From a virus (taxonomy: Duplodnaviria; Heunggongvirae; Uroviricota; Caudoviricetes): a stretch of 11,283 nucleotides of DNA. Under the pieces are notes generated by a model. It was not told the DNA's origin and did not search any database. It was given only the letters and a program-made list of their open reading frames with translations. This document shows positions 3,192-9,582 of this stretch, one piece after another (positions within the stretch are counted from its first letter, which is position 1; each line of letters opens with the position of its first letter). Made by a program: the position numbers and the translations under genes. The stretch lies in the IMG/VR virus record IMGVR_UViG_2675903654_000023; one strand, 5' to 3'.

Positions 3192-3206
3192 TTACCTTAT
3201 AGGTAA
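3192..3206. promoter_or_regulatory. Palindromic operator-like site TTACC-N5-GGTAA (copy 1 of 4)
   Basis: Seen directly: gTTACCttataGGTAAa. It lies in the AT-rich intergenic island between the lysis cassette (minus strand) and a small plus-strand ORF. Confidence 0.45.
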
Positions 3207-3442: not shown

Positions 3443-5518
3443 CTATTTATTGGAAAATAAATTCTCAAGCTTGCTAATTCTGGCTTCCAGTTTCTGCCGC
3501 TCTCTCCGCTGATATGCAGCTTCCAGCCAGAGACATTGATCAGCACGAATGCCCCATCGGTTTCCCGCTGGCGTAACCAGCAGCCTGCCCTCAGGCTTTA
3601 CAATCTCTGTCCAGGCTTCTTTCTTGACGATTTGCTGCATTGATACATCCAAAATAGAAGAATACTCGGCAGGATGCTCAACCACTTCCTCAGGGATAAT
3701 CTCGTACTGGTCTTGCCATTCATCGTAACAGAGCAGGCCAAATCGAGTCCCGTCGATTCCTTTCGACTCGAATGCCTCTTTAACCTGTTGTGCAATAACG
3801 CCAAAATGCCAACGTGCGCCAGCCTGCCCCTTTTCTTTAATAGAATTCAGCCACTGAAAAGCGATTATTGAAACTTCCCCCCACGCGTCAAGTATTGCAT
3901 TTTCATCAACAGCCATGAATTTCGATAGCTCTGATACTTTAATCGGCTGTGATTTTTCACGGCCGTCTGAAGTATTAATTGAACCAGTGCCTGCAAAAAC
4001 GGTGCTCCAGCGGTTTACGATATCACCCAAAGGTGTTGAGTTATCATTACCAGGGGTTAACGCGCGCTGGGAGACTGCGGCAGGCTTAATCTGGAGACGC
4101 ACCTCATTTCCGGATACAAATTTTAAACTAGTGTCGCCTGTTGTACCTAAATAAGTCCCGTTTACATCAGTTGTCACAAAGCCGTGAAAGTTACCGGTCG
4201 CCCCGCCGCGCCAGCTTATGGCGTAAGTTAATTGCGACGGATCTATGCCAAATCCTGCAGCGCCATTCTGGAACATCTTGCCAAGGTTCGGAGCATAATA
4301 GCCATAGCCATTCATCTGTCGGACATTTATAGCTACGTTCGCTCCCCGAGCCGCTTTTAAATGCTCAATATAAACGCCGCTTTGTTCACCTACAATGCCA
4401 GTACTTCCAAGCAAAACATCATTGATATATACCCCTCTGCGGTCGAGTATCGTCCCGGTTCCATTATGTGATGGGGATGAATAAAATCCCTGCATGTTTT
4501 CCAGAGTTCCGCTTCCGGCGTAATTAATACGATCTTGAAAGCTGAAAGCGTGATTTTGAGCGTGGCCGCCAGTTATGATTAGCGTTGAATCAAAAGCTCC
4601 ATATCCGCCATAGTCGGAGGCCTGATTAATAACTGTCTTATCTGCGAAGGCGTGGCAGTTCGTTGGCGCGTTATCGATACGACGAGCCACGTTTATGGCG
4701 TCTCTTAGCGAATCAGGCGACGGCCATGTAGCGCCAGCCACGCCGACTGGCTGGTCGCCAACTATAAGATTTCCGTACGTGGTTGAGATGCGTAAACCGC
4801 CTGTCATTGTGTCGCCGCGCTTGTCGACTGCGTTACCTACCCTTTTGACTCCATCAGGCTGAGCCAGGGTTATCAGTACGTCAGAGGCGCTACCGCTTTG
4901 TGGAACAACAGTAATTGGATTTCCTGATGAATCGAAAGCCAATAGCTGATTTGCTCGCATCGACACGCCAGGAACTGGGCCTACATAACTCTCCGGAACC
5001 CGTAGCGTGCGGTTGAAGTTAACGTTGTTAAGCGTATCAACATAATTTTTAGTGGCTGCATCTTGGGGGGTTGAAGGATCGCGTAAGTTTCTGATGTAAT
5101 TGTTAAGCGCATCATAATAATTTGCCACGAATGACGGCTTACGCAGCGCCAAGCTAAACCAACTTCGAACCTGCTGGATCAGCATCGTTAGCTTATCAAA
5201 AGCATCCTCATGCACTTCTGCAAAGAACTTACCCTGATTACGCAAATCAGTTTCCTGCGTAACCGGGAGCTCTCGTGATATAGAAATCTGATAACCGCTA
5301 ACCAATGCCTTCGACAGAATTATATTGCCACCATTGTATCCTCCAGCCCCAGTAACTATGTAATCAGTGTCAAGAATCAGCTCTGTGATGTTCTCGTTCA
5401 GGTCAACAACCTGCACTACTAAATCAGATTTCTGGAAAATCCTGAAGGTATAAGGGAATGTCGTTGTAACACCGTTACCGGTGTATTCGTTGTGGTCAAC
5501 TTCGGTTGAGACCGTCAT
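3443..5518 (-). CDS. Tailspike / tail fibre protein with a C-terminal intramolecular chaperone (peptidase S74-like) domain
   Basis: 691 aa. The N-terminal roughly 120 aa resemble the particle-binding N-domain of podovirus tail fibres/tailspikes (YTGNGVTTTFPYTF...). The central region is Gly/Asn/Thr-rich, consistent with a beta-helix receptor-binding or depolymerase domain. The C-terminal roughly 175 aa start with an S-D-x-R-x-K motif (SDGREK, about residue 517, nt about 3968-3970), the hallmark of self-cleaving chaperone domains. RBS GGAG lies 7 nt upstream of the ATG at 5518. Confidence 0.85.
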   Translation of the reverse strand: MTVSTEVDHNEYTGNGVTTTFPYTFRIFQKSDLVVQVVDLNENITELILDTDYIVTGAGGYNGGNIILSKALVSGYQISISRELPVTQETDLRNQGKFFAEVHEDAFDKLTMLIQQVRSWFSLALRKPSFVANYYDALNNYIRNLRDPSTPQDAATKNYVDTLNNVNFNRTLRVPESYVGPVPGVSMRANQLLAFDSSGNPITVVPQSGSASDVLITLAQPDGVKRVGNAVDKRGDTMTGGLRISTTYGNLIVGDQPVGVAGATWPSPDSLRDAINVARRIDNAPTNCHAFADKTVINQASDYGGYGAFDSTLIITGGHAQNHAFSFQDRINYAGSGTLENMQGFYSSPSHNGTGTILDRRGVYINDVLLGSTGIVGEQSGVYIEHLKAARGANVAINVRQMNGYGYYAPNLGKMFQNGAAGFGIDPSQLTYAISWRGGATGNFHGFVTTDVNGTYLGTTGDTSLKFVSGNEVRLQIKPAAVSQRALTPGNDNSTPLGDIVNRWSTVFAGTGSINTSDGREKSQPIKVSELSKFMAVDENAILDAWGEVSIIAFQWLNSIKEKGQAGARWHFGVIAQQVKEAFESKGIDGTRFGLLCYDEWQDQYEIIPEEVVEHPAEYSSILDVSMQQIVKKEAWTEIVKPEGRLLVTPAGNRWGIRADQCLWLEAAYQRRERQKLEARISKLENLFSNK

Positions 5519-5674
5519 GTTAAATCTCCGGATAGTCGCAGCACCCGTTGCGCCGCATATCCGGTTATTCTATTACCTGAAAAACCACATATGGATATAT
5601 AACCCATAAATACGAACAGATATTACCTTTCAGGTGATTCGCAAAACGTGCTGGATAGCAAACAAATTATTTGA

Positions 5675-5713: not shown

Positions 5714-5971
5714 ATGCAGCAGTATCACTATCCACTGGAAGACGGATTTACCGAAAGGATTCACACGCCGGGAGGCGTCAGGTCACTGGTGGAGGGATCG
5801 CACTTGATGAAATTACTCCGGGATCTCGATAAGGATGGATTTAATGTCGATGGCCCACTTGCCGAACTGACTGCACTGATTAACTACGTCACCAGCTCAC
5901 AGATGTCTATGCGGGATCTGCAAACACATCTCGACTATTGTGCCGAACAATTACGAAAACAAACCAGATAA
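5714..5971 (+). CDS. Small stand-alone antirepressor C-domain protein (85 aa), probably SOS-controlled
   Basis: RBS GGAG (5702-5705) precedes the ATG at 5714. The protein aligns without gaps over about 72 residues with the shared C-terminal domain of the two larger antirepressor-like proteins, at roughly 45-50% identity by eye (IHTPGGV...LMKLL...DG..V.G..AELT...RDLQTH..Y). The LexA box lies immediately upstream. Confidence 0.6.
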   Translation: MQQYHYPLEDGFTERIHTPGGVRSLVEGSHLMKLLRDLDKDGFNVDGPLAELTALINYVTSSQMSMRDLQTHLDYCAEQLRKQTR

Positions 5972-5974
5972 GGT

Positions 5975-6003
5975 TTGCAATTACCAAGTGGAGTGCTTAT
6001 ATT
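5975..6003 (+). promoter_or_regulatory. Sigma70-type promoter of the plus-arm sRNA-like element
   Basis: Seen directly: -35 TTGCAA (5975-5980), 17-nt spacer, -10 TATATT (5998-6003). It begins 4 nt after the stop codon of the 85-aa gene. Confidence 0.5.
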
Positions 6004-6017
6004 TACCTTTGCGGTAA
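6003..6017. promoter_or_regulatory. Palindromic operator-like site TTACC-N5-GGTAA (copy 2 of 4), overlapping the -10/+1 of the sRNA promoter
   Basis: Seen directly: ATTTACCtttgcGGTAAAT, an extended 7-5-7 palindrome. Confidence 0.5.
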
Positions 6018-6130
6018 ATTTACATCGCACTCCTCTTGTGCCATAGTAATCGGGCACTGGCAAAATCCAGTGCCGGGATTGGCGTCCCGGATTACTACAG
6101 AGGCACATATGCCGCATAAGCGGTTTTTTT
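6010..6130 (+). ncRNA. Candidate structured small RNA / terminated leader (plus arm)
   Basis: Bounded by the promoter above and an intrinsic terminator (GCCGC-ATAA-GCGG followed by seven T, about 6111-6130). The core (about 6004-6097) is more than 95% identical to the inverted copy at 8993-9086. It contains stable hairpins (GGCACTGG-CAAAAT-CCAGTGCC and CCGGGA-TTGGCG-TCCCGG). No conserved ORF spans it. Confidence 0.5.
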
Positions 6131-6225
6131 ATGTGTAAAACGCACCTATTCTATGGTGGGCTGTGTGGGGGCACCGAAAGGTGCGCCGGGTCCTTTGTAG
6201 CCGGTTACGCCAACTCTGCACAGTT

Positions 6226-6256
6226 CACCACCAACCGATTGGCGTCGGTAGTGGTG
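6226..6256 (+). promoter_or_regulatory. Leader hairpin upstream of the Bro-N antirepressor RBS, loop UUGGCG
   Basis: Seen directly: CACCACC-A-ACCGA-TTGGCG-TCGGT-A-GTGGTG. The loop is identical to the hairpin-2 loop of the plus-arm sRNA element. The hairpin ends about 27 nt before the ATG at 6284. Confidence 0.45.
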
Positions 6257-6283
6257 ATTAACCTAACTACAAAGGTGATCACT

Positions 6284-6970
6284 ATGACTGCTAACGTAAC
6301 CCCATCTGTTTTTCATTTTGAATCAGAAGCAACCATTCGAGCCATTGTTATTGATGGAAATCCTTGGTTTGTTGCCAAAGACGTTATTAAAGCTCTTCAA
6401 CTGACAAACCCCACTATGTCAATAAAATCTCTTGATGATGATGAAAGGGCTAAATTTAACTTAGGCCGTCAAGGCGAAACCAATATTATCAACGAGTCAG
6501 GCCTCTACACACTGATCCTCCGCTGCCGCGACGCAGTGACACCAGGCACTATCCCCTACCGCTTTCGTAAATGGGTTACAGGTGAGGTTCTTCCTCAGAT
6601 CCGCCGCACCGGAAGTTACATTAAAAACTCGCTCCCGCAGGAAGAACGCATAAAGATGGTTGCCGACCAGGTAGCCAACGCCACGGCGTCAGCAGTGATG
6701 AAGGCGATGAAGATAGAGAACAAAACCTACAGCGCCCCGCTGAAGCCAGGCTACCGCAGCCTGATTCACTCGCCGTCTGGTGTTCTCGGCCTGACGGAGA
6801 ACTCACTGCTGATGAATCTGCTGAACCAGTTACAGGAAGACGGGCACGACGTATCGGGCGCGGCGGCGGAGCTGACCACCATGTTCTGCTACATCGTCGG
6901 TGTGAGCAAATGCCTGCGTGATATCCAGACGCACGCGGAGTACATCAACGACAAGGCTGGGTTCTTCTGA
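6284..6970 (+). CDS. Antirepressor-like protein: N-terminal Bro-N domain plus shared C-terminal domain
   Basis: Internal ATG of track ORF 6131-6970, with RBS AGGTGA 5 nt upstream. The N-terminus has Bro-N motifs (IRAIVIDGNPWFVAKDV...GLYTLILRCR...FRKWVTGEVLPQIRRTG). The C-terminal roughly 80 aa are identical to those of the convergent gene at 8144-8800. Confidence 0.8.
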   Translation: MTANVTPSVFHFESEATIRAIVIDGNPWFVAKDVIKALQLTNPTMSIKSLDDDERAKFNLGRQGETNIINESGLYTLILRCRDAVTPGTIPYRFRKWVTGEVLPQIRRTGSYIKNSLPQEERIKMVADQVANATASAVMKAMKIENKTYSAPLKPGYRSLIHSPSGVLGLTENSLLMNLLNQLQEDGHDVSGAAAELTTMFCYIVGVSKCLRDIQTHAEYINDKAGFF

Positions 6971-6993
6971 CGGGCGGCGGCACAGGGATGTGC
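6730..6993. repeat. Inner inverted repeat, left arm (partner 8121-8385)
   Basis: Seen directly by reverse-complement comparison. About 230 bp (6763-6993) are near-identical to the reverse complement of 8121-8352, with one mismatch noticed. Identity drops to roughly 90% over the preceding 30 bp and is then lost. It covers the shared C-domain coding sequence plus a 3' hairpin (GGCACAGGGATGTGCC). Confidence 0.85.
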
Positions 6994-7042
6994 CTTTAAA
7001 TAATTCTGTACAGATTGCAGACTGTGGGTGAATAGCGTACTA

Positions 7043-7057
7043 TTACCTCAAGGGTAA
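7043..7057. promoter_or_regulatory. Palindromic operator-like site TTACC-N5-GGTAA (copy 3 of 4), upstream of the central module
   Basis: Seen directly: aTTACCtcaagGGTAAa. It is followed by a second inverted repeat (ACGGATT-N14-AATCCGT, 7059-7086) that overlaps a candidate promoter. Confidence 0.45.
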
Positions 7058-7117: not shown

Positions 7118-7297
7118 ATGCGAAACGAAAAATTGCAGATGCGTAGAGCGCAAGCTGCCGCAAGACGTTCTTTCAATGGAAGCGTAGAGTACGTAAAAGT
7201 TACTATGACAAAAGATCACGCAAGTCGCGTATCCCGCGCTTTCTTTGATTCTCGTAACAATAAGGAAAATTATGAGTTCGTCTGCGTCGCAGAATGA
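7118..7297 (+). CDS. Small basic protein (59 aa), candidate antitoxin or regulator of the central module
   Basis: Absent from the ORF track, presumably below its length cut-off; hand-translated as MRNEKLQMRRAQAAARRSFNGSVEYVKVTMTKDHASRVSRAFFDSRNNKENYEFVCVAE. Strong RBS GAGG 7 nt upstream of the ATG at 7118. Its 3' end overlaps the start of the next gene by 26 nt in a different frame. Confidence 0.45.
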   Translation: MRNEKLQMRRAQAAARRSFNGSVEYVKVTMTKDHASRVSRAFFDSRNNKENYEFVCVAE

Positions 7298-7817
7298 TAA
7301 AAATCAAGTTGTCAGATATAAGGGTCGAGTGTTGCATACGCAAAATTTCTCGGCCCTTTGTGCATCTGATCTTGAGCTGAAGAAAGTATCTGATGCCTTT
7401 ACCCAGTATTGGAAAACGGGATACCATCCATCTCTTGGTAAAGATGCTGCATTTGCTCGTCCGACAGAAATGCTTAAACTAAATGTCAGGCATACTCATG
7501 TCGATAACCAAGACTATATTCCAGAAGATAGTGATAAAAAACACACTGGTAAAAAATCATCTTGGGATGCATGGAAAAATATAGCGTCTGTACAAGTAAA
7601 ATGCATACCAACAAGTGATTGCTTTTTAGTTTATTCGGTAAATCACAATCGTGATGCGCTGGTTATGTTTTTTGTTGACGCAGATGCTCACAACATAACT
7701 GAGCAAGAAGAGTTTAAAGAGGAAGCAATCACTATCAGTTATCAATTCTTTGAGAAAACAAAAACAGAACCAATGCCTTTAGAAGAAGATCTTTTTTCTG
7801 ATAAATGGAAGGAATAG
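7272..7817 (+). CDS. Hypothetical protein (181 aa), candidate toxin; weak YafO-like resemblance
   Basis: Internal ATG of track ORF 7245-7817, with RBS AAGGA 5 nt upstream. AT-rich coding sequence. Segments (GKDAAF...LNVRHTHV...CFLVYSV...ALVMFFVDADAH) resemble motifs I recall from YafO-family toxins; this is from memory and unverified. An intrinsic terminator follows directly. Confidence 0.55.
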   Translation: MSSSASQNDKNQVVRYKGRVLHTQNFSALCASDLELKKVSDAFTQYWKTGYHPSLGKDAAFARPTEMLKLNVRHTHVDNQDYIPEDSDKKHTGKKSSWDAWKNIASVQVKCIPTSDCFLVYSVNHNRDALVMFFVDADAHNITEQEEFKEEAITISYQFFEKTKTEPMPLEEDLFSDKWKE

Positions 7818-7837
7818 CCCGCAGCGCGGGCTTTTTT
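7817..7837 (+). terminator. Intrinsic terminator of the central module
   Basis: Seen directly: stem GCCCGC (7817-7822), loop AGC, stem GCGGGC (7826-7831), then six T (7832-7837). It overlaps the stop codon. Confidence 0.7.
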
Positions 7838-7909
7838 GTGGACGAAACAAAAGTCAGTGCTACACTCATTGACGCCACATTGAGGTGGCTTATAGATGGA
7901 AATTTCACA

Positions 7910-8071
7910 ATGAAAAAAGCATTTGCTGCACTGTTCGTTTTGTTGTCTCTGGTAGCTTCAACTCAGGCCTTTGCCGGTCGTTGTCAGCACGACAGCGATA
8001 CTGCCGCTGACGGCTCCCGCTGCGGTGGGCGTTCTGCGGATTCCCGCCCGGGCGGCGGTGGCATTCGTTAA
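7910..8071 (+). CDS. Hypothetical small secreted peptide (53 aa precursor, about 31 aa mature, two Cys), possibly leaderless
   Basis: Internal ATG of track ORF 7805-8071. Signal peptide MKKAFAALFVLLSLVASTQAFA followed by a Gly/Arg/Asp-rich tail. A candidate promoter (TTGACG 7869-7874, TATAGA 7891-7896) would place the transcript start only a few nt before the ATG. No convincing Shine-Dalgarno. Coding status is uncertain. Confidence 0.3.
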   Translation: MKKAFAALFVLLSLVASTQAFAGRCQHDSDTAADGSRCGGRSADSRPGGGGIR

Positions 8072-8120: not shown

Positions 8121-8385
8121 GCACGTCCCTGTGCCGCCGCCCGTCAGAAGAACCCAGCCTTGTCGTTGATGTACTCCGCGTGCGTCTGGATATCACGCAG
8201 GCATTTGCTCACACCGACGATGTAGCAGAACATGGTGGTCAGCTCCGCCGCCGCGCCCGATACGTCGTGCCCGTCTTCCTGTAACTGGTTCAGCAGATTC
8301 ATCAGCAGTGAGTTCTCCGTCAGGCCGAGAACACCAGACGGCGAGTGAATCAAACTGCGGTAGCCGGGCTTCAGTGGGGCGCTGT
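8121..8385. repeat. Inner inverted repeat, right arm (partner 6730-6993)
   Basis: Reverse complement is near-identical to 6763-6993; see the left-arm entry. Confidence 0.85.
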
Positions 8386-8800
8386 ATTCTTTTTTGTCTT
8401 CCAGCTTGATCGCCTCCATAATGGCGGGCATGAAGCCTGACAAGACCTTCTCCACTTTTGTTTCTTGTTGTCTTAAACGTTTCTCGCATTCAATGAAGTA
8501 GCGTCGTACCTGACGACCTTTTTCGTTACGCTCGACCATCGCCAGCTCTTTGGCTGTATCAAGGGTGAGGTGGTACTCTTTGCGGTTGTGGCCGCCTCTA
8601 CCAGATGTTTGCTTTCCCAAATTGGAAAGCAAAATATAGTCTTGATTTTCAATGAATTCGTATTCTGATATGCGATTTGTAATCCATGCTGCAAACACCT
8701 TTTTAACACCTAAAAAAGCGTGCAGATCGCGGGCATTACAAAGTAGGGCTGTTTCGTTAGATATAGTGCCGTTGAATACGGGGATGAGTTGAGCGTTCAT
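8144..8800 (-). CDS. Antirepressor-like protein: N-terminal AntA-type domain plus shared C-terminal domain
   Basis: The N-terminus matches the AntA/AntB antirepressor N-domain pattern (LIPVFNGT...[10 protein letters not shown]...W...EYEF...[27 protein letters not shown]). The C-terminal roughly 80 aa are identical to those of the 6284-6970 product. RBS GGAG 8 nt upstream of the ATG at 8800. Confidence 0.85.
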
Positions 8801-8958: not shown

Positions 8959-9080
8959 AAAAAAAACCACGTCTGGCGTGGTATGCGCCACTTAGTAATC
9001 CGGGAGACCAATCCCGGCACTGGATTTTGCCAGTGCATGATTACTATGGCACAAGAGGAGTGCGATGTAAATTTACCGCA
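8959..9080 (-). ncRNA. Candidate structured small RNA / terminated leader (minus arm)
   Basis: Inverted copy of the 6010-6130 element. Its own intrinsic terminator on the minus strand is ACCACG-CCAGA-CGTGGT followed by eight T (plus coordinates about 8959-8982), different in sequence from the plus-arm terminator. Hairpin-2 reads CCGGGA-TTGGTC-TCCCGG. Confidence 0.5.
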
Positions 9081-9087
9081 AAGGTAA
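9073..9087. promoter_or_regulatory. Palindromic operator-like site TTACC-N5-GGTAA (copy 4 of 4), overlapping the -10/+1 of the minus-arm sRNA promoter
   Basis: Seen directly: TTTACCgcaaaGGTAA. It is part of the outer inverted repeat. Confidence 0.5.
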
Positions 9088-9116
9088 TGATAAGCGCTAA
9101 GAAATATTAAAATCAA
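9087..9116 (-). promoter_or_regulatory. Sigma70-type promoter of the minus-arm sRNA-like element
   Basis: Minus-strand reading: -35 TTGATT (plus 9111-9116), 18-nt spacer, -10 TATCAT (plus 9087-9092). Sequence upstream of the -10 is not homologous to the plus-arm promoter, yet a promoter is retained. Confidence 0.45.
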
Positions 9117-9234: not shown

Positions 9235-9582
9235 GTGCCATTCCACGGCGCAGAGCTTTATGTTGTCAATCACAACGGCGAACCGTATACCCCAATGAAA
9301 CCTATCGTTGAGGGAATGGGGCTAGACTGGAAATCTCAACATAAGAAGATTTCTCAACGCTTCTCGAAGGGTATGGTGGAAATCACCATACCTTCTGCCG
9401 GTGGGGTGCAAGCCATGATTTGTATGGCTTTACGAAAATTGGCAGCTTGGTTGAACAGCATCAGCCCTAACAAAGTCCGCCCTGAAATCCGCGAAAGTAT
9501 TGAAACATCAACCGTATCGATATCGACACGGTTGATTATGACGGTAACTTATTTCCGTGTGTCCTATTTCTCCCGCCACTAA
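9235..9582 (+). pseudogene. Probable remnant of an antirepressor N-terminal (P22_AR_N-like) domain gene
   Basis: The track ORF starts at a GTG with no RBS. Residues about 8-85 (LYVVNHNGEPYTPMKPIVEGMGLDWKSQHKKISQRF...LRKLAAWLNSISPNKVRPEIRE) resemble antirepressor N-terminal domains as I recall them. The last roughly 30 residues look like out-of-frame read-through. It ends back-to-back with the convergent 98-aa gene. Confidence 0.35.

Follow-up and report, generated by a model that had tools for sequence, protein, structure and literature searches.

The element examined here occupies positions 5975–6130 of an 11,283-nucleotide (nt) stretch of Caudoviricetes DNA (IMG/VR record IMGVR_UViG_2675903654_000023), called the window below, and lies immediately upstream of an antirepressor gene, ant. 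Its closest described relatives are the immI region of phages P1 and P7 and the isrK locus of the Salmonella prophage Gifsy-1. In P1, C1 represses the c4-icd-ant operon (PMC8198154), and full repression of ant requires the C4 antisense RNA (PMC8198154, citing Citron & Schuster 1990). Transcripts from the Gifsy-1 isrK promoter comprise a short, terminated small RNA (sRNA), IsrK, and a translationally silent read-through isrK–orf45–anrP mRNA, the latter of which is processed to yield an RNA of ~80 nt, STnc1160 (PMC4825925). When IsrK is provided in trans, anrP translation rises 139-fold and anrP transcription 8-fold (PMC4825925). IsrK-family and c4-family sRNAs have also been described in the APSE phages of Hamiltonella, where a′ and b′ match the region upstream of the adjacent Bro-N gene (PMC7313666), and a 2025 review treats IsrK and c4 as separate entries (PMC12197685).

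We propose that the interval is the IsrK gene of a P1-immI/Gifsy-1-type switch in an epsilon15/phiV10-like prophage, in which C4 blocks translation of ant and IsrK relieves the block, and we regard this reading as likely. An earlier note, made from the letters alone, had described a sigma70 promoter, a hairpin-rich RNA of roughly 120 nt with an intrinsic terminator, and a Bro-N antirepressor gene behind a structured leader. It missed that the leader is C4, that IsrK carries copies (a1 and b1) of the C4 target segments, that a proximal promoter lies at 6019–6047, and that the window holds a second cassette of the same kind.

IsrK and C4 RNAs precede a Bro-N antirepressor gene

The earlier note could not assign the element to an RNA family by eye and suggested a covariance-model search. 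Run with Rfam models, this search identifies 6054–6130 as IsrK, the putative equivalent of c4-a1b1 (RF01394, 76.8 bits, gathering score 50), and 6149–6235 as C4 antisense RNA (RF01695, 76.2 bits, gathering score 45), both on the plus strand, as are the promoters, target segments and gene of this first cassette. Both matches are full-length, spanning model positions 1–77 of 77 and 1–87 of 87, respectively. The likeness to P1 c4-ant and IsrK-type loci that the note had sensed is borne out by these above-gathering matches. Neither sar nor any further antisense family matched at E ≤ 1 across 5900–6400, where the sole additional match was a chance one to speF (E = 0.83).

In IsrK, hairpin 1 (6054–6073) is followed by hairpin 2 (6074–6089), with segment a1 (UUGGCGU, 6079–6085) in and beside its loop. 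Segment b1 (CUACAGAGG, 6095–6103) precedes a weak, 5-base-pair (bp) terminator with its stem at 6111–6124 and a run of seven U residues ending at 6130. The stable hairpins and the intrinsic terminator of the earlier note are thus both present: the RNA 6007–6130 folds at −50.1 kcal/mol (z = −5.55), and none of 200 dinucleotide shuffles folds as well. The terminator scan returned 14 terminator-like sites against 4.0 expected. Among 67 IsrK variants, compensatory double changes occur in 5 of 16 pairs (three in hairpin 1, two in the terminator), and hairpin 2 is either invariant or shows G-C to G-U changes only.

A further helix, CACAUA (6104–6109) with UAUGUG (6130–6135), would bracket the IsrK terminator and is possible in the read-through RNA only. 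Such a helix would explain why an AUG or GUG is conserved directly behind the U-tract (90 of 93 modules). The helix occurs in 66 of 68 variants, compared with 75% in the non-cognate control, and is not called by RNAalifold; given this weak covariation support, we set it aside as unproven.

The C4 model comprises a long closing stem, two inner hairpins and a single-stranded junction. The closing stem is long here too and is followed by CCA, and across 63 variants compensatory double changes are found in 18 of 26 pairs. Segment b′ (CCUUUGUAG, 6192–6200) is located in the loop of the second inner hairpin, and a′ (ACGCCAA, 6207–6213) lies in the single-stranded junction. Both have partners in the ant leader: a2 (UUGGCGU, 6239–6245) forms 7 bp with a′, and b2 (CUACAAAGG, 6267–6275) forms 9 bp with b′. 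The AUG of ant at 6284 is preceded by a Shine-Dalgarno sequence (AAAGGUGA, 6271–6278) into which b2 extends. The leader is structured, as the earlier note had it. The gene that follows (6284–6970) encodes a Bro-N antirepressor of 228 amino acids (aa), as the note had also read (Pfam Bro-N, E = 4.4e-20; PHROG annotation, anti-repressor Ant).

The IsrK segment a1 is a copy of a2, and b1 pairs with b′ with one G·U pair. Since IsrK carries copies of the segments that C4 targets, it most likely activates rather than represses. In the predicted minimum-energy fold of both read-through RNAs, a1 and b1 are paired with a′ and b′ in cis.

The a and b segments co-vary across modules

An exact-pattern scan of IMG/VR yielded 120 stretches that reduce to 111 unique modules; 109 of these were parsed, and the other two could not be. 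In all 109, a1 and a2 are the same sequence and a′ is its reverse complement, with three a-types represented: UUGGCGU in 72 modules, UUGGUCU in 32 and UUGGAAC in five. The b segments are far more diverse, with 33 distinct b′ loops. For these, the b1:b′ pairing run averages 8.97 nt and reaches at least 8 nt in 33 of 33 cognate combinations; the non-cognate control averages 4.89 nt and reaches that length in 2.8%. The b2:b′ run averages 9.45 nt and reaches at least 8 nt in 31 of 33, against a mean of 6.04 nt and 11% in the non-cognate control. Among the relatives listed, b2 overlaps the Shine-Dalgarno sequence or the AUG.

The three a-types and 33 b-types recombine; in the stretch L012, a UUGGUCU a-type is joined to the b-type of the first cassette of the window. 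Where co-resident cassettes were compared (the window, L012, L036, L017/L018 and L069/L070), the b segments always differ within the pair. The IsrK/C4 pair is widespread, with hits in Gifsy-1, Stx-converting phages, APSE, a P1-like phage and a Moraxella phage. Family membership, the complementarities, their co-variation and the architecture are direct observations of this analysis.

A second cassette on the minus strand

The window contains a second cassette with the same layout and different a and b letters, convergent with the first. On the minus strand, a promoter region (9043–9116) with a distal TTGATT-18-TATCAT (9116–9087) and a proximal TTTACA-17-CATAGT (9071–9043), between which lies a palindrome core (9087–9073), precedes a second IsrK (9036–8960; RF01394, 67.7 bits) with a1 (UUGGUCU, 9011–9005), b1 (CUAAGUGG, 8995–8988) and a 6-bp terminator. 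It is followed by a second C4 (8934–8850; RF01695, 61.2 bits) with b′ (CCACUUAG, 8893–8886) and a′ (AGACCAA, 8878–8872), and by a leader in which a2 (UUGGUCU, 8846–8840) is identical to a1 and b2 (CUAAGUGG, 8818–8811), identical to b1, lies over the Shine-Dalgarno sequence. The gene downstream (8800–8144) encodes an AntA-family antirepressor of 218 aa (Pfam AntA, E = 4.2e-26).

Duplex energies of the short segments sum to −22.5 to −27.2 kcal/mol for cognate pairs and to −8.6 to −14.5 kcal/mol for cross-pairs, and on these energies the two cassettes should not cross-react. Whole-RNA duplex energies (C4 with IsrK or leader) were discarded in favour of short-segment duplexes and longest-run statistics, because they ignore the fold of each RNA itself and are uninformative.

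The cassettes also share inverted repeats, 6715–6993 with 8121–8399 (279 nt, 96%) and 5992–6097 with 8993–9098 (106 nt, 93%). Their two antirepressors differ in the N-terminal domain and are identical over the C-terminal ~80 residues. Recombination between the repeat arms could invert a 1.1-kb segment that carries a YafO-like gene. The stretch L036 (IMGVR_UViG_2693429700_000024) has the same two cassette types at mirrored positions and on opposite strands, and is thus probably the reverse complement of the window.

Putative tandem promoters flank a candidate repressor operator

The sigma70 promoter described in the earlier note, TTGCAA-17-TATATT, is present at 5975–6003 (−35 at 5975–5980, −10 at 5998–6003) and matches the consensus at 9 of 12 positions. 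By itself the match is at chance level, as the promoter scan found seven such sites where shuffles gave an expectation of 6.4. Among 58 distinct upstream sequences of the phiV10-like subgroup, however, most have the hexamers at the same positions and a diverged spacer, the variants being TTGCAA, TTGATT, TTGAAA or TTGTAA, 17–18 nt from TATATT, TATCAT or TATTAT. The distal promoter is missing from the Gifsy-like and other lineages compared and, judged by sequence, is restricted to the phiV10-like subgroup; its fixed position within that subgroup makes tandem promoters plausible.

The proximal promoter (PisrK), TTTACA-17-TGcCATAGT, has its −35 at 6019–6024, a 17-nt spacer and an extended −10 at 6039–6047, with a predicted start near 6054. 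Its sequence is identical in the second cassette. Every lineage examined has a −35/−10 pair at a constant distance from the 5′ end of IsrK, even where the sequences are unrelated (TTGATG…TATGGT in Gifsy-like modules, TTGACT…TATAGT elsewhere), and in the window it sits 7 nt before the 5′ end of the IsrK model. This fixed distance marks the proximal pair as the probable family-wide PisrK and predicts an RNA of 77 nt. The length of roughly 120 nt given in the earlier note therefore holds only in part: the principal RNA is probably the 77-nt species from the proximal promoter, with a 120-nt isoform from the distal promoter possible. The scan gave no promoter-like site on the plus strand between 6048 and 6284, and hence none between IsrK and C4, which agrees with the earlier view that the leader has no obvious promoter of its own.

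In the predicted fold of the 120-nt RNA, the 5′ extension (UGUGCC.AUAGUAAUC, 6037–6053) pairs with GAUUACUA…GGCACA (6090–6107) and partly masks b1. Owing to this masking, the 77-nt and 120-nt isoforms are predicted to be able to differ in activity.

A palindrome resembling an operator, ATTTACC-N5-GGTAAAT (6001–6019; core TTACC-N5-GGTAA at 6003–6017), extends into the distal −10 at one end and borders the proximal −35 at the other. Its arms are conserved across relatives and its spacer is variable. The core occurs five times in the window against 0.21 expected (3192–3206, 5623–5637 with one mismatch, 6003–6017, 7043–7057 and 9073–9087), always between genes, and 14 times in the complete phiV10 genome (L126) against 0.71 expected. 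There, two sites on each side (31953/32015 and 32727/32775) flank the repressor gene PhiV10p40, and one further site lies at the IsrK promoter. The palindrome is probably the operator of the main prophage repressor, and its distribution suggests that this repressor binds here and shuts both IsrK promoters. The spread of the sites suggests direct control of many transcription units in these phages. The control of the P1 c4-icd-ant operon by C1 is a parallel to the repressor control suggested here (PMC8198154).

Proposed mechanism

In the switch that we propose, transcription would start near 6054 from the proximal promoter, and possibly also near 6010 from the distal one. As both promoters flank the probable operator, the unit would be largely shut in the lysogen by repressor bound at the palindrome. 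Most transcripts would end at the weak 5-bp terminator to give the 77-nt IsrK, and a fraction would read through and carry C4 and ant, with terminator strength (5 bp here, 6 bp in the second cassette) setting the ratio of short to read-through RNA. C4, probably released by processing, would pair through a′ and b′ with a2 and b2, cover the Shine-Dalgarno sequence and block Ant translation. IsrK would use a1 and b1 to pair with a′ and b′, in free C4 or in the long transcript, in competition with the ribosome-binding site, and thereby switch translation on. Ant would then inactivate the repressor and further de-repress the unit in a positive feedback loop. The minus-strand cassette would work alike on the AntA-type antirepressor, with an a/b barcode that does not cross-react.

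Several steps have counterparts in homologues, where a1:a′ pairing, trans-activation by IsrK and repression of ant by C4 have been shown. In Gifsy-1, the mutations G28A and G31A activate (PMC4825925), and by our count both lie in a1 of IsrK; C162U and C159U, which fall in a′ in our alignment, restore the wild-type conformation in native gels (PMC4825925). The earlier note had offered a trans-acting sRNA or an attenuator whose read-through controls the antirepressor. This is supported, and both of its alternatives apply, because a trans-acting sRNA and terminator read-through operate side by side in the Gifsy-1 unit (PMC4825925). For the present phage we infer C4 processing, direct occlusion of the ribosome-binding site and control by the repressor. 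In the related phage vB_EcoP_ZX5, the lytic cycle is promoted by over-expression of the Bro-N anti-repressor ORF4 (PMC9782041); ORF4 is the putative counterpart of the 6284–6970 product, and the ZX5 paper does not mention the RNAs (PMC9782041).

Tentatively, we go one step further and suggest that IsrK may be a decoy dedicated to the antisense RNA, with a two-part a1/b1 barcode that co-evolves with a′/b′ of C4 and with a2/b2 at the antirepressor ribosome-binding site. If so, a- and b-types would combine freely into many mutually orthogonal RNA switches, and one prophage would run two independent RNA-gated antirepressors. As these two differ in the N-terminal domain but share the operator and an identical C-terminal domain, they would provide two inputs on one lysogeny switch. 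The orf45 model of Gifsy-1 and the c4 model of P1 would then be unified.

Points against the proposal and alternative explanations

Several points weigh against the C4–IsrK switch as proposed. In Gifsy-1, activation was ascribed to opening of the orf45 ribosome-binding site and not to relief of a trans-acting C4 (PMC4825925), and constitutive expression of the C4-equivalent RNA, STnc1160, did not block the IsrK effect (PMC4825925). In the window, the Rfam family c4-a1b1 (RF03163, "a1, b1 targets of C4 antisense RNA"), which scores above gathering over the 5′ half of IsrK in Gifsy-1 and in an Stx2a phage, reaches 45.1 bits at 6041–6093 against a gathering score of 46.7 and thus falls 1.6 bits short. 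A clear b2 match is missing in two of the 33 b-types. Finally, the operator was assigned from motif distribution alone.

The first of these points leads to an alternative modelled on Gifsy-1, in which IsrK would open the ribosome-binding site of a small open reading frame (ORF) running through the C4 region, and ribosomes translating this frame would unfold the structure and re-initiate at ant; the C4-like fold would then be an mRNA structure with no separate antisense RNA. Start-codon mutations and a premature stop in orf45 do lower activation in Gifsy-1 (PMC4825925), and the first cassette has an ATG at 6131 that shares the frame of ant and opens a 279-aa ORF, a start codon behind the U-tract being found in 90 of 93 modules. 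That ATG, however, has no preceding Shine-Dalgarno sequence, and the frame from the orf45-type AUG at 6153, in the C4 5′ stem, runs for 15 codons only (three in the second cassette). Over the 93 modules, the ORFs opened by either start are between 3 and >68 codons long, with no frame conserved, and b2 lies directly on the ant Shine-Dalgarno sequence. As a conserved frame of orf45 length is missing, direct action at the ant Shine-Dalgarno sequence is more likely, and we consider coupling through an upstream ORF improbable. For the same reason, the lack of a conserved frame or length, we rejected small proteins encoded by the 66-aa ORF at 5938–6138, the ATG 6131 frame or the orf45 frame.

Control could instead be exerted mainly on transcription, as with the CI RNA of P4: C4 would pair with a1/b1 and a2/b2 on the nascent RNA and favour early termination, either at the IsrK terminator or through Rho downstream, a mode that may coexist with the proposed translational switch. 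Rfam groups C4 and c4-a1b1 in a single clan (CL00128), a1 and b1 lie immediately upstream of the terminator, the analogy with P4 seqA/CI/seqC was raised in the Gifsy-1 paper (PMC4825925), and IsrK in trans raises anrP transcription 8-fold (PMC4825925). The translational effect in Gifsy-1 (139-fold) is nevertheless far above this transcriptional one (PMC4825925), constitutive STnc1160 does not suppress the IsrK effect (PMC4825925), and b2 sits on the Shine-Dalgarno sequence, as a translational block would predict; mainly transcriptional control is therefore unlikely. Far less probable still is a purely cis-acting attenuator or leader without trans-acting RNAs, in which the terminator merely limits transcription into ant. 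A weak terminator directly 5′ of the gene would by itself lower ant transcription, but this would leave unexplained why IsrK contains copies of the ant ribosome-binding-site segments that co-vary with the C4 loops over 33 b-types, and it conflicts with the trans-activity in Gifsy-1 (PMC4825925) and with the action of C4 in trans in P1/P7 (PMC8198154, citing Citron & Schuster 1990).

Genomic setting

The window starts in the E. coli chromosome, with yfgH (1–516) and yfgI (532–1071), past which an epsilon15/phiV10-like (Uetakevirus) prophage begins. The 17-bp att core reported for phage vB_EcoP_ZX5 (PMC9782041), where it lies at the guaA 3′ end, has an exact copy at 1164–1180 on the minus strand, which marks the prophage boundary beside yfgI. 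Upstream of the RNA unit lie lysis genes, a tail-fibre gene (3443–5518, minus strand) and a small plus-strand gene (5714–5971; phrog_450, phiV10p24/epsilon15p19-like). The 85-aa product of this small gene has 39% identity to the C-terminal domain common to both antirepressors, of which it is a free-standing homologue, and from this similarity could be a modulator or competitor of Ant.

Between the cassettes, a YafO-family toxin-like gene and its neighbours occupy 7118–7297, 7272–7817 and 7805–8071 on the plus strand, with the palindrome 7043–7057 ahead of the group. The YafO match scores 26.1 bits in Pfam (cut-off 25); a small ORF (phrog_6685) lies upstream of the gene and a membrane-associated small ORF downstream, and no antitoxin could be recognised. 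Divergent from the second cassette, a 115-aa ORF (9235–9582, plus strand) consists of a P22_AR_N domain only (E = 6.6e-32) and is the third antirepressor-related gene within 4 kb.

The region 5900–7000 has matches in 542 of 5426 complete E. coli genomes. In the annotations listed under these matches there are no RNA features, only "BRO-N domain-containing protein" and "hypothetical protein", and the phiV10 record carries a "putative rho-independent terminator" as its sole annotation at the corresponding place. The ZX5 locus is 95.5% identical to this region at the nucleotide level over 81% of the query.

Significance and comparison with known systems

The element belongs to curated RNA families, and the biology is established in P1/P7 and Gifsy-1. 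As the three-part layout has also been noted in APSE phages (PMC7313666), the finding is already known, and what we add is modest: (i) a natural pair of orthogonal cassettes in one prophage, (ii) the breadth of the three-way a/b co-variation, whose triplets could be used as a ready-made library of orthogonal RNA switches, and (iii) a probable link between the module and the main repressor operator in epsilon15-like phages. The analysis also provides a clean annotation for a region that RefSeq/GenBank leave unannotated, or annotated as a terminator only, in hundreds of E. coli prophages, and shows that a phage RNA immunity module is recognisable by tool-free reading of the sequence.

The Gifsy-1 isrK–orf45(STnc1160)–anrP locus of Salmonella (Hershko-Shalev et al. 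2016, PMC4825925) has the same two Rfam families in the same order, with an antirepressor-like gene downstream. Its a1 segment, in which the mutated G28 and G31 fall by our count, is identical to the one here. Both loci have a weak terminator with read-through (which here we deduce from the layout), and the fold predicted here, in which IsrK pairs in cis with the C4 region, resembles the inactive "structure A" of Gifsy-1. Unlike Gifsy-1, the present locus lacks a frame of orf45 length (15 and 3 codons in the two cassettes) and has b2 on the ant Shine-Dalgarno sequence. Its promoter sequences are different and are associated with a palindrome that resembles a repressor operator, and there is no antQ upstream. 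Gifsy-1 is lambdoid, whereas the phage here is an epsilon15-like podovirus with two cassettes in one prophage.

In P1/P7 immI (c4–icd–ant1/2; PMC8198154), C4 is co-transcribed with its own target, the ant mRNA, as it is here. The operon is also under the main repressor, as is suggested for the present one. A P1-like phage has a C4 above the gathering score immediately upstream of icd, and its upstream a1/b1 region scores below the gathering scores of IsrK and c4-a1b1. To our knowledge, no discrete terminated sRNA of the IsrK type has been described in P1. Citron and Schuster (1990 and 1992) and Hartmann and co-workers (1995) reportedly found that C4 is processed by RNase P and that its target is the icd ribosome-binding site, whereas the target here is the ribosome-binding site of ant itself. 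P1 and P7 reportedly differ in c4 specificity (heteroimmunity), according to Citron and Schuster, much as the barcodes of the two cassettes in the window differ.

The APSE loci share the three-part layout and are also among our BLAST hits. They come from another host and phage lineage, with a single cassette reported (PMC7313666), and the a1/b1 copies in IsrK were not noted there (PMC7313666). The CI RNA of P4 is likewise a processed antisense RNA placed between upstream and downstream complementary sites of one transcript, and the Gifsy-1 authors consider P4 seqA a structural homologue of IsrK (PMC4825925). CI acts on transcription termination and on replication genes, not on an antirepressor ribosome-binding site. 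In the sar–ant system of P22, an antisense RNA governs translation of the antirepressor, as we propose here. There, sar is a true cis-antisense RNA, read from the strand opposite to ant and running over its ribosome-binding site; in the present locus, by contrast, IsrK, C4 and ant all lie on one strand.

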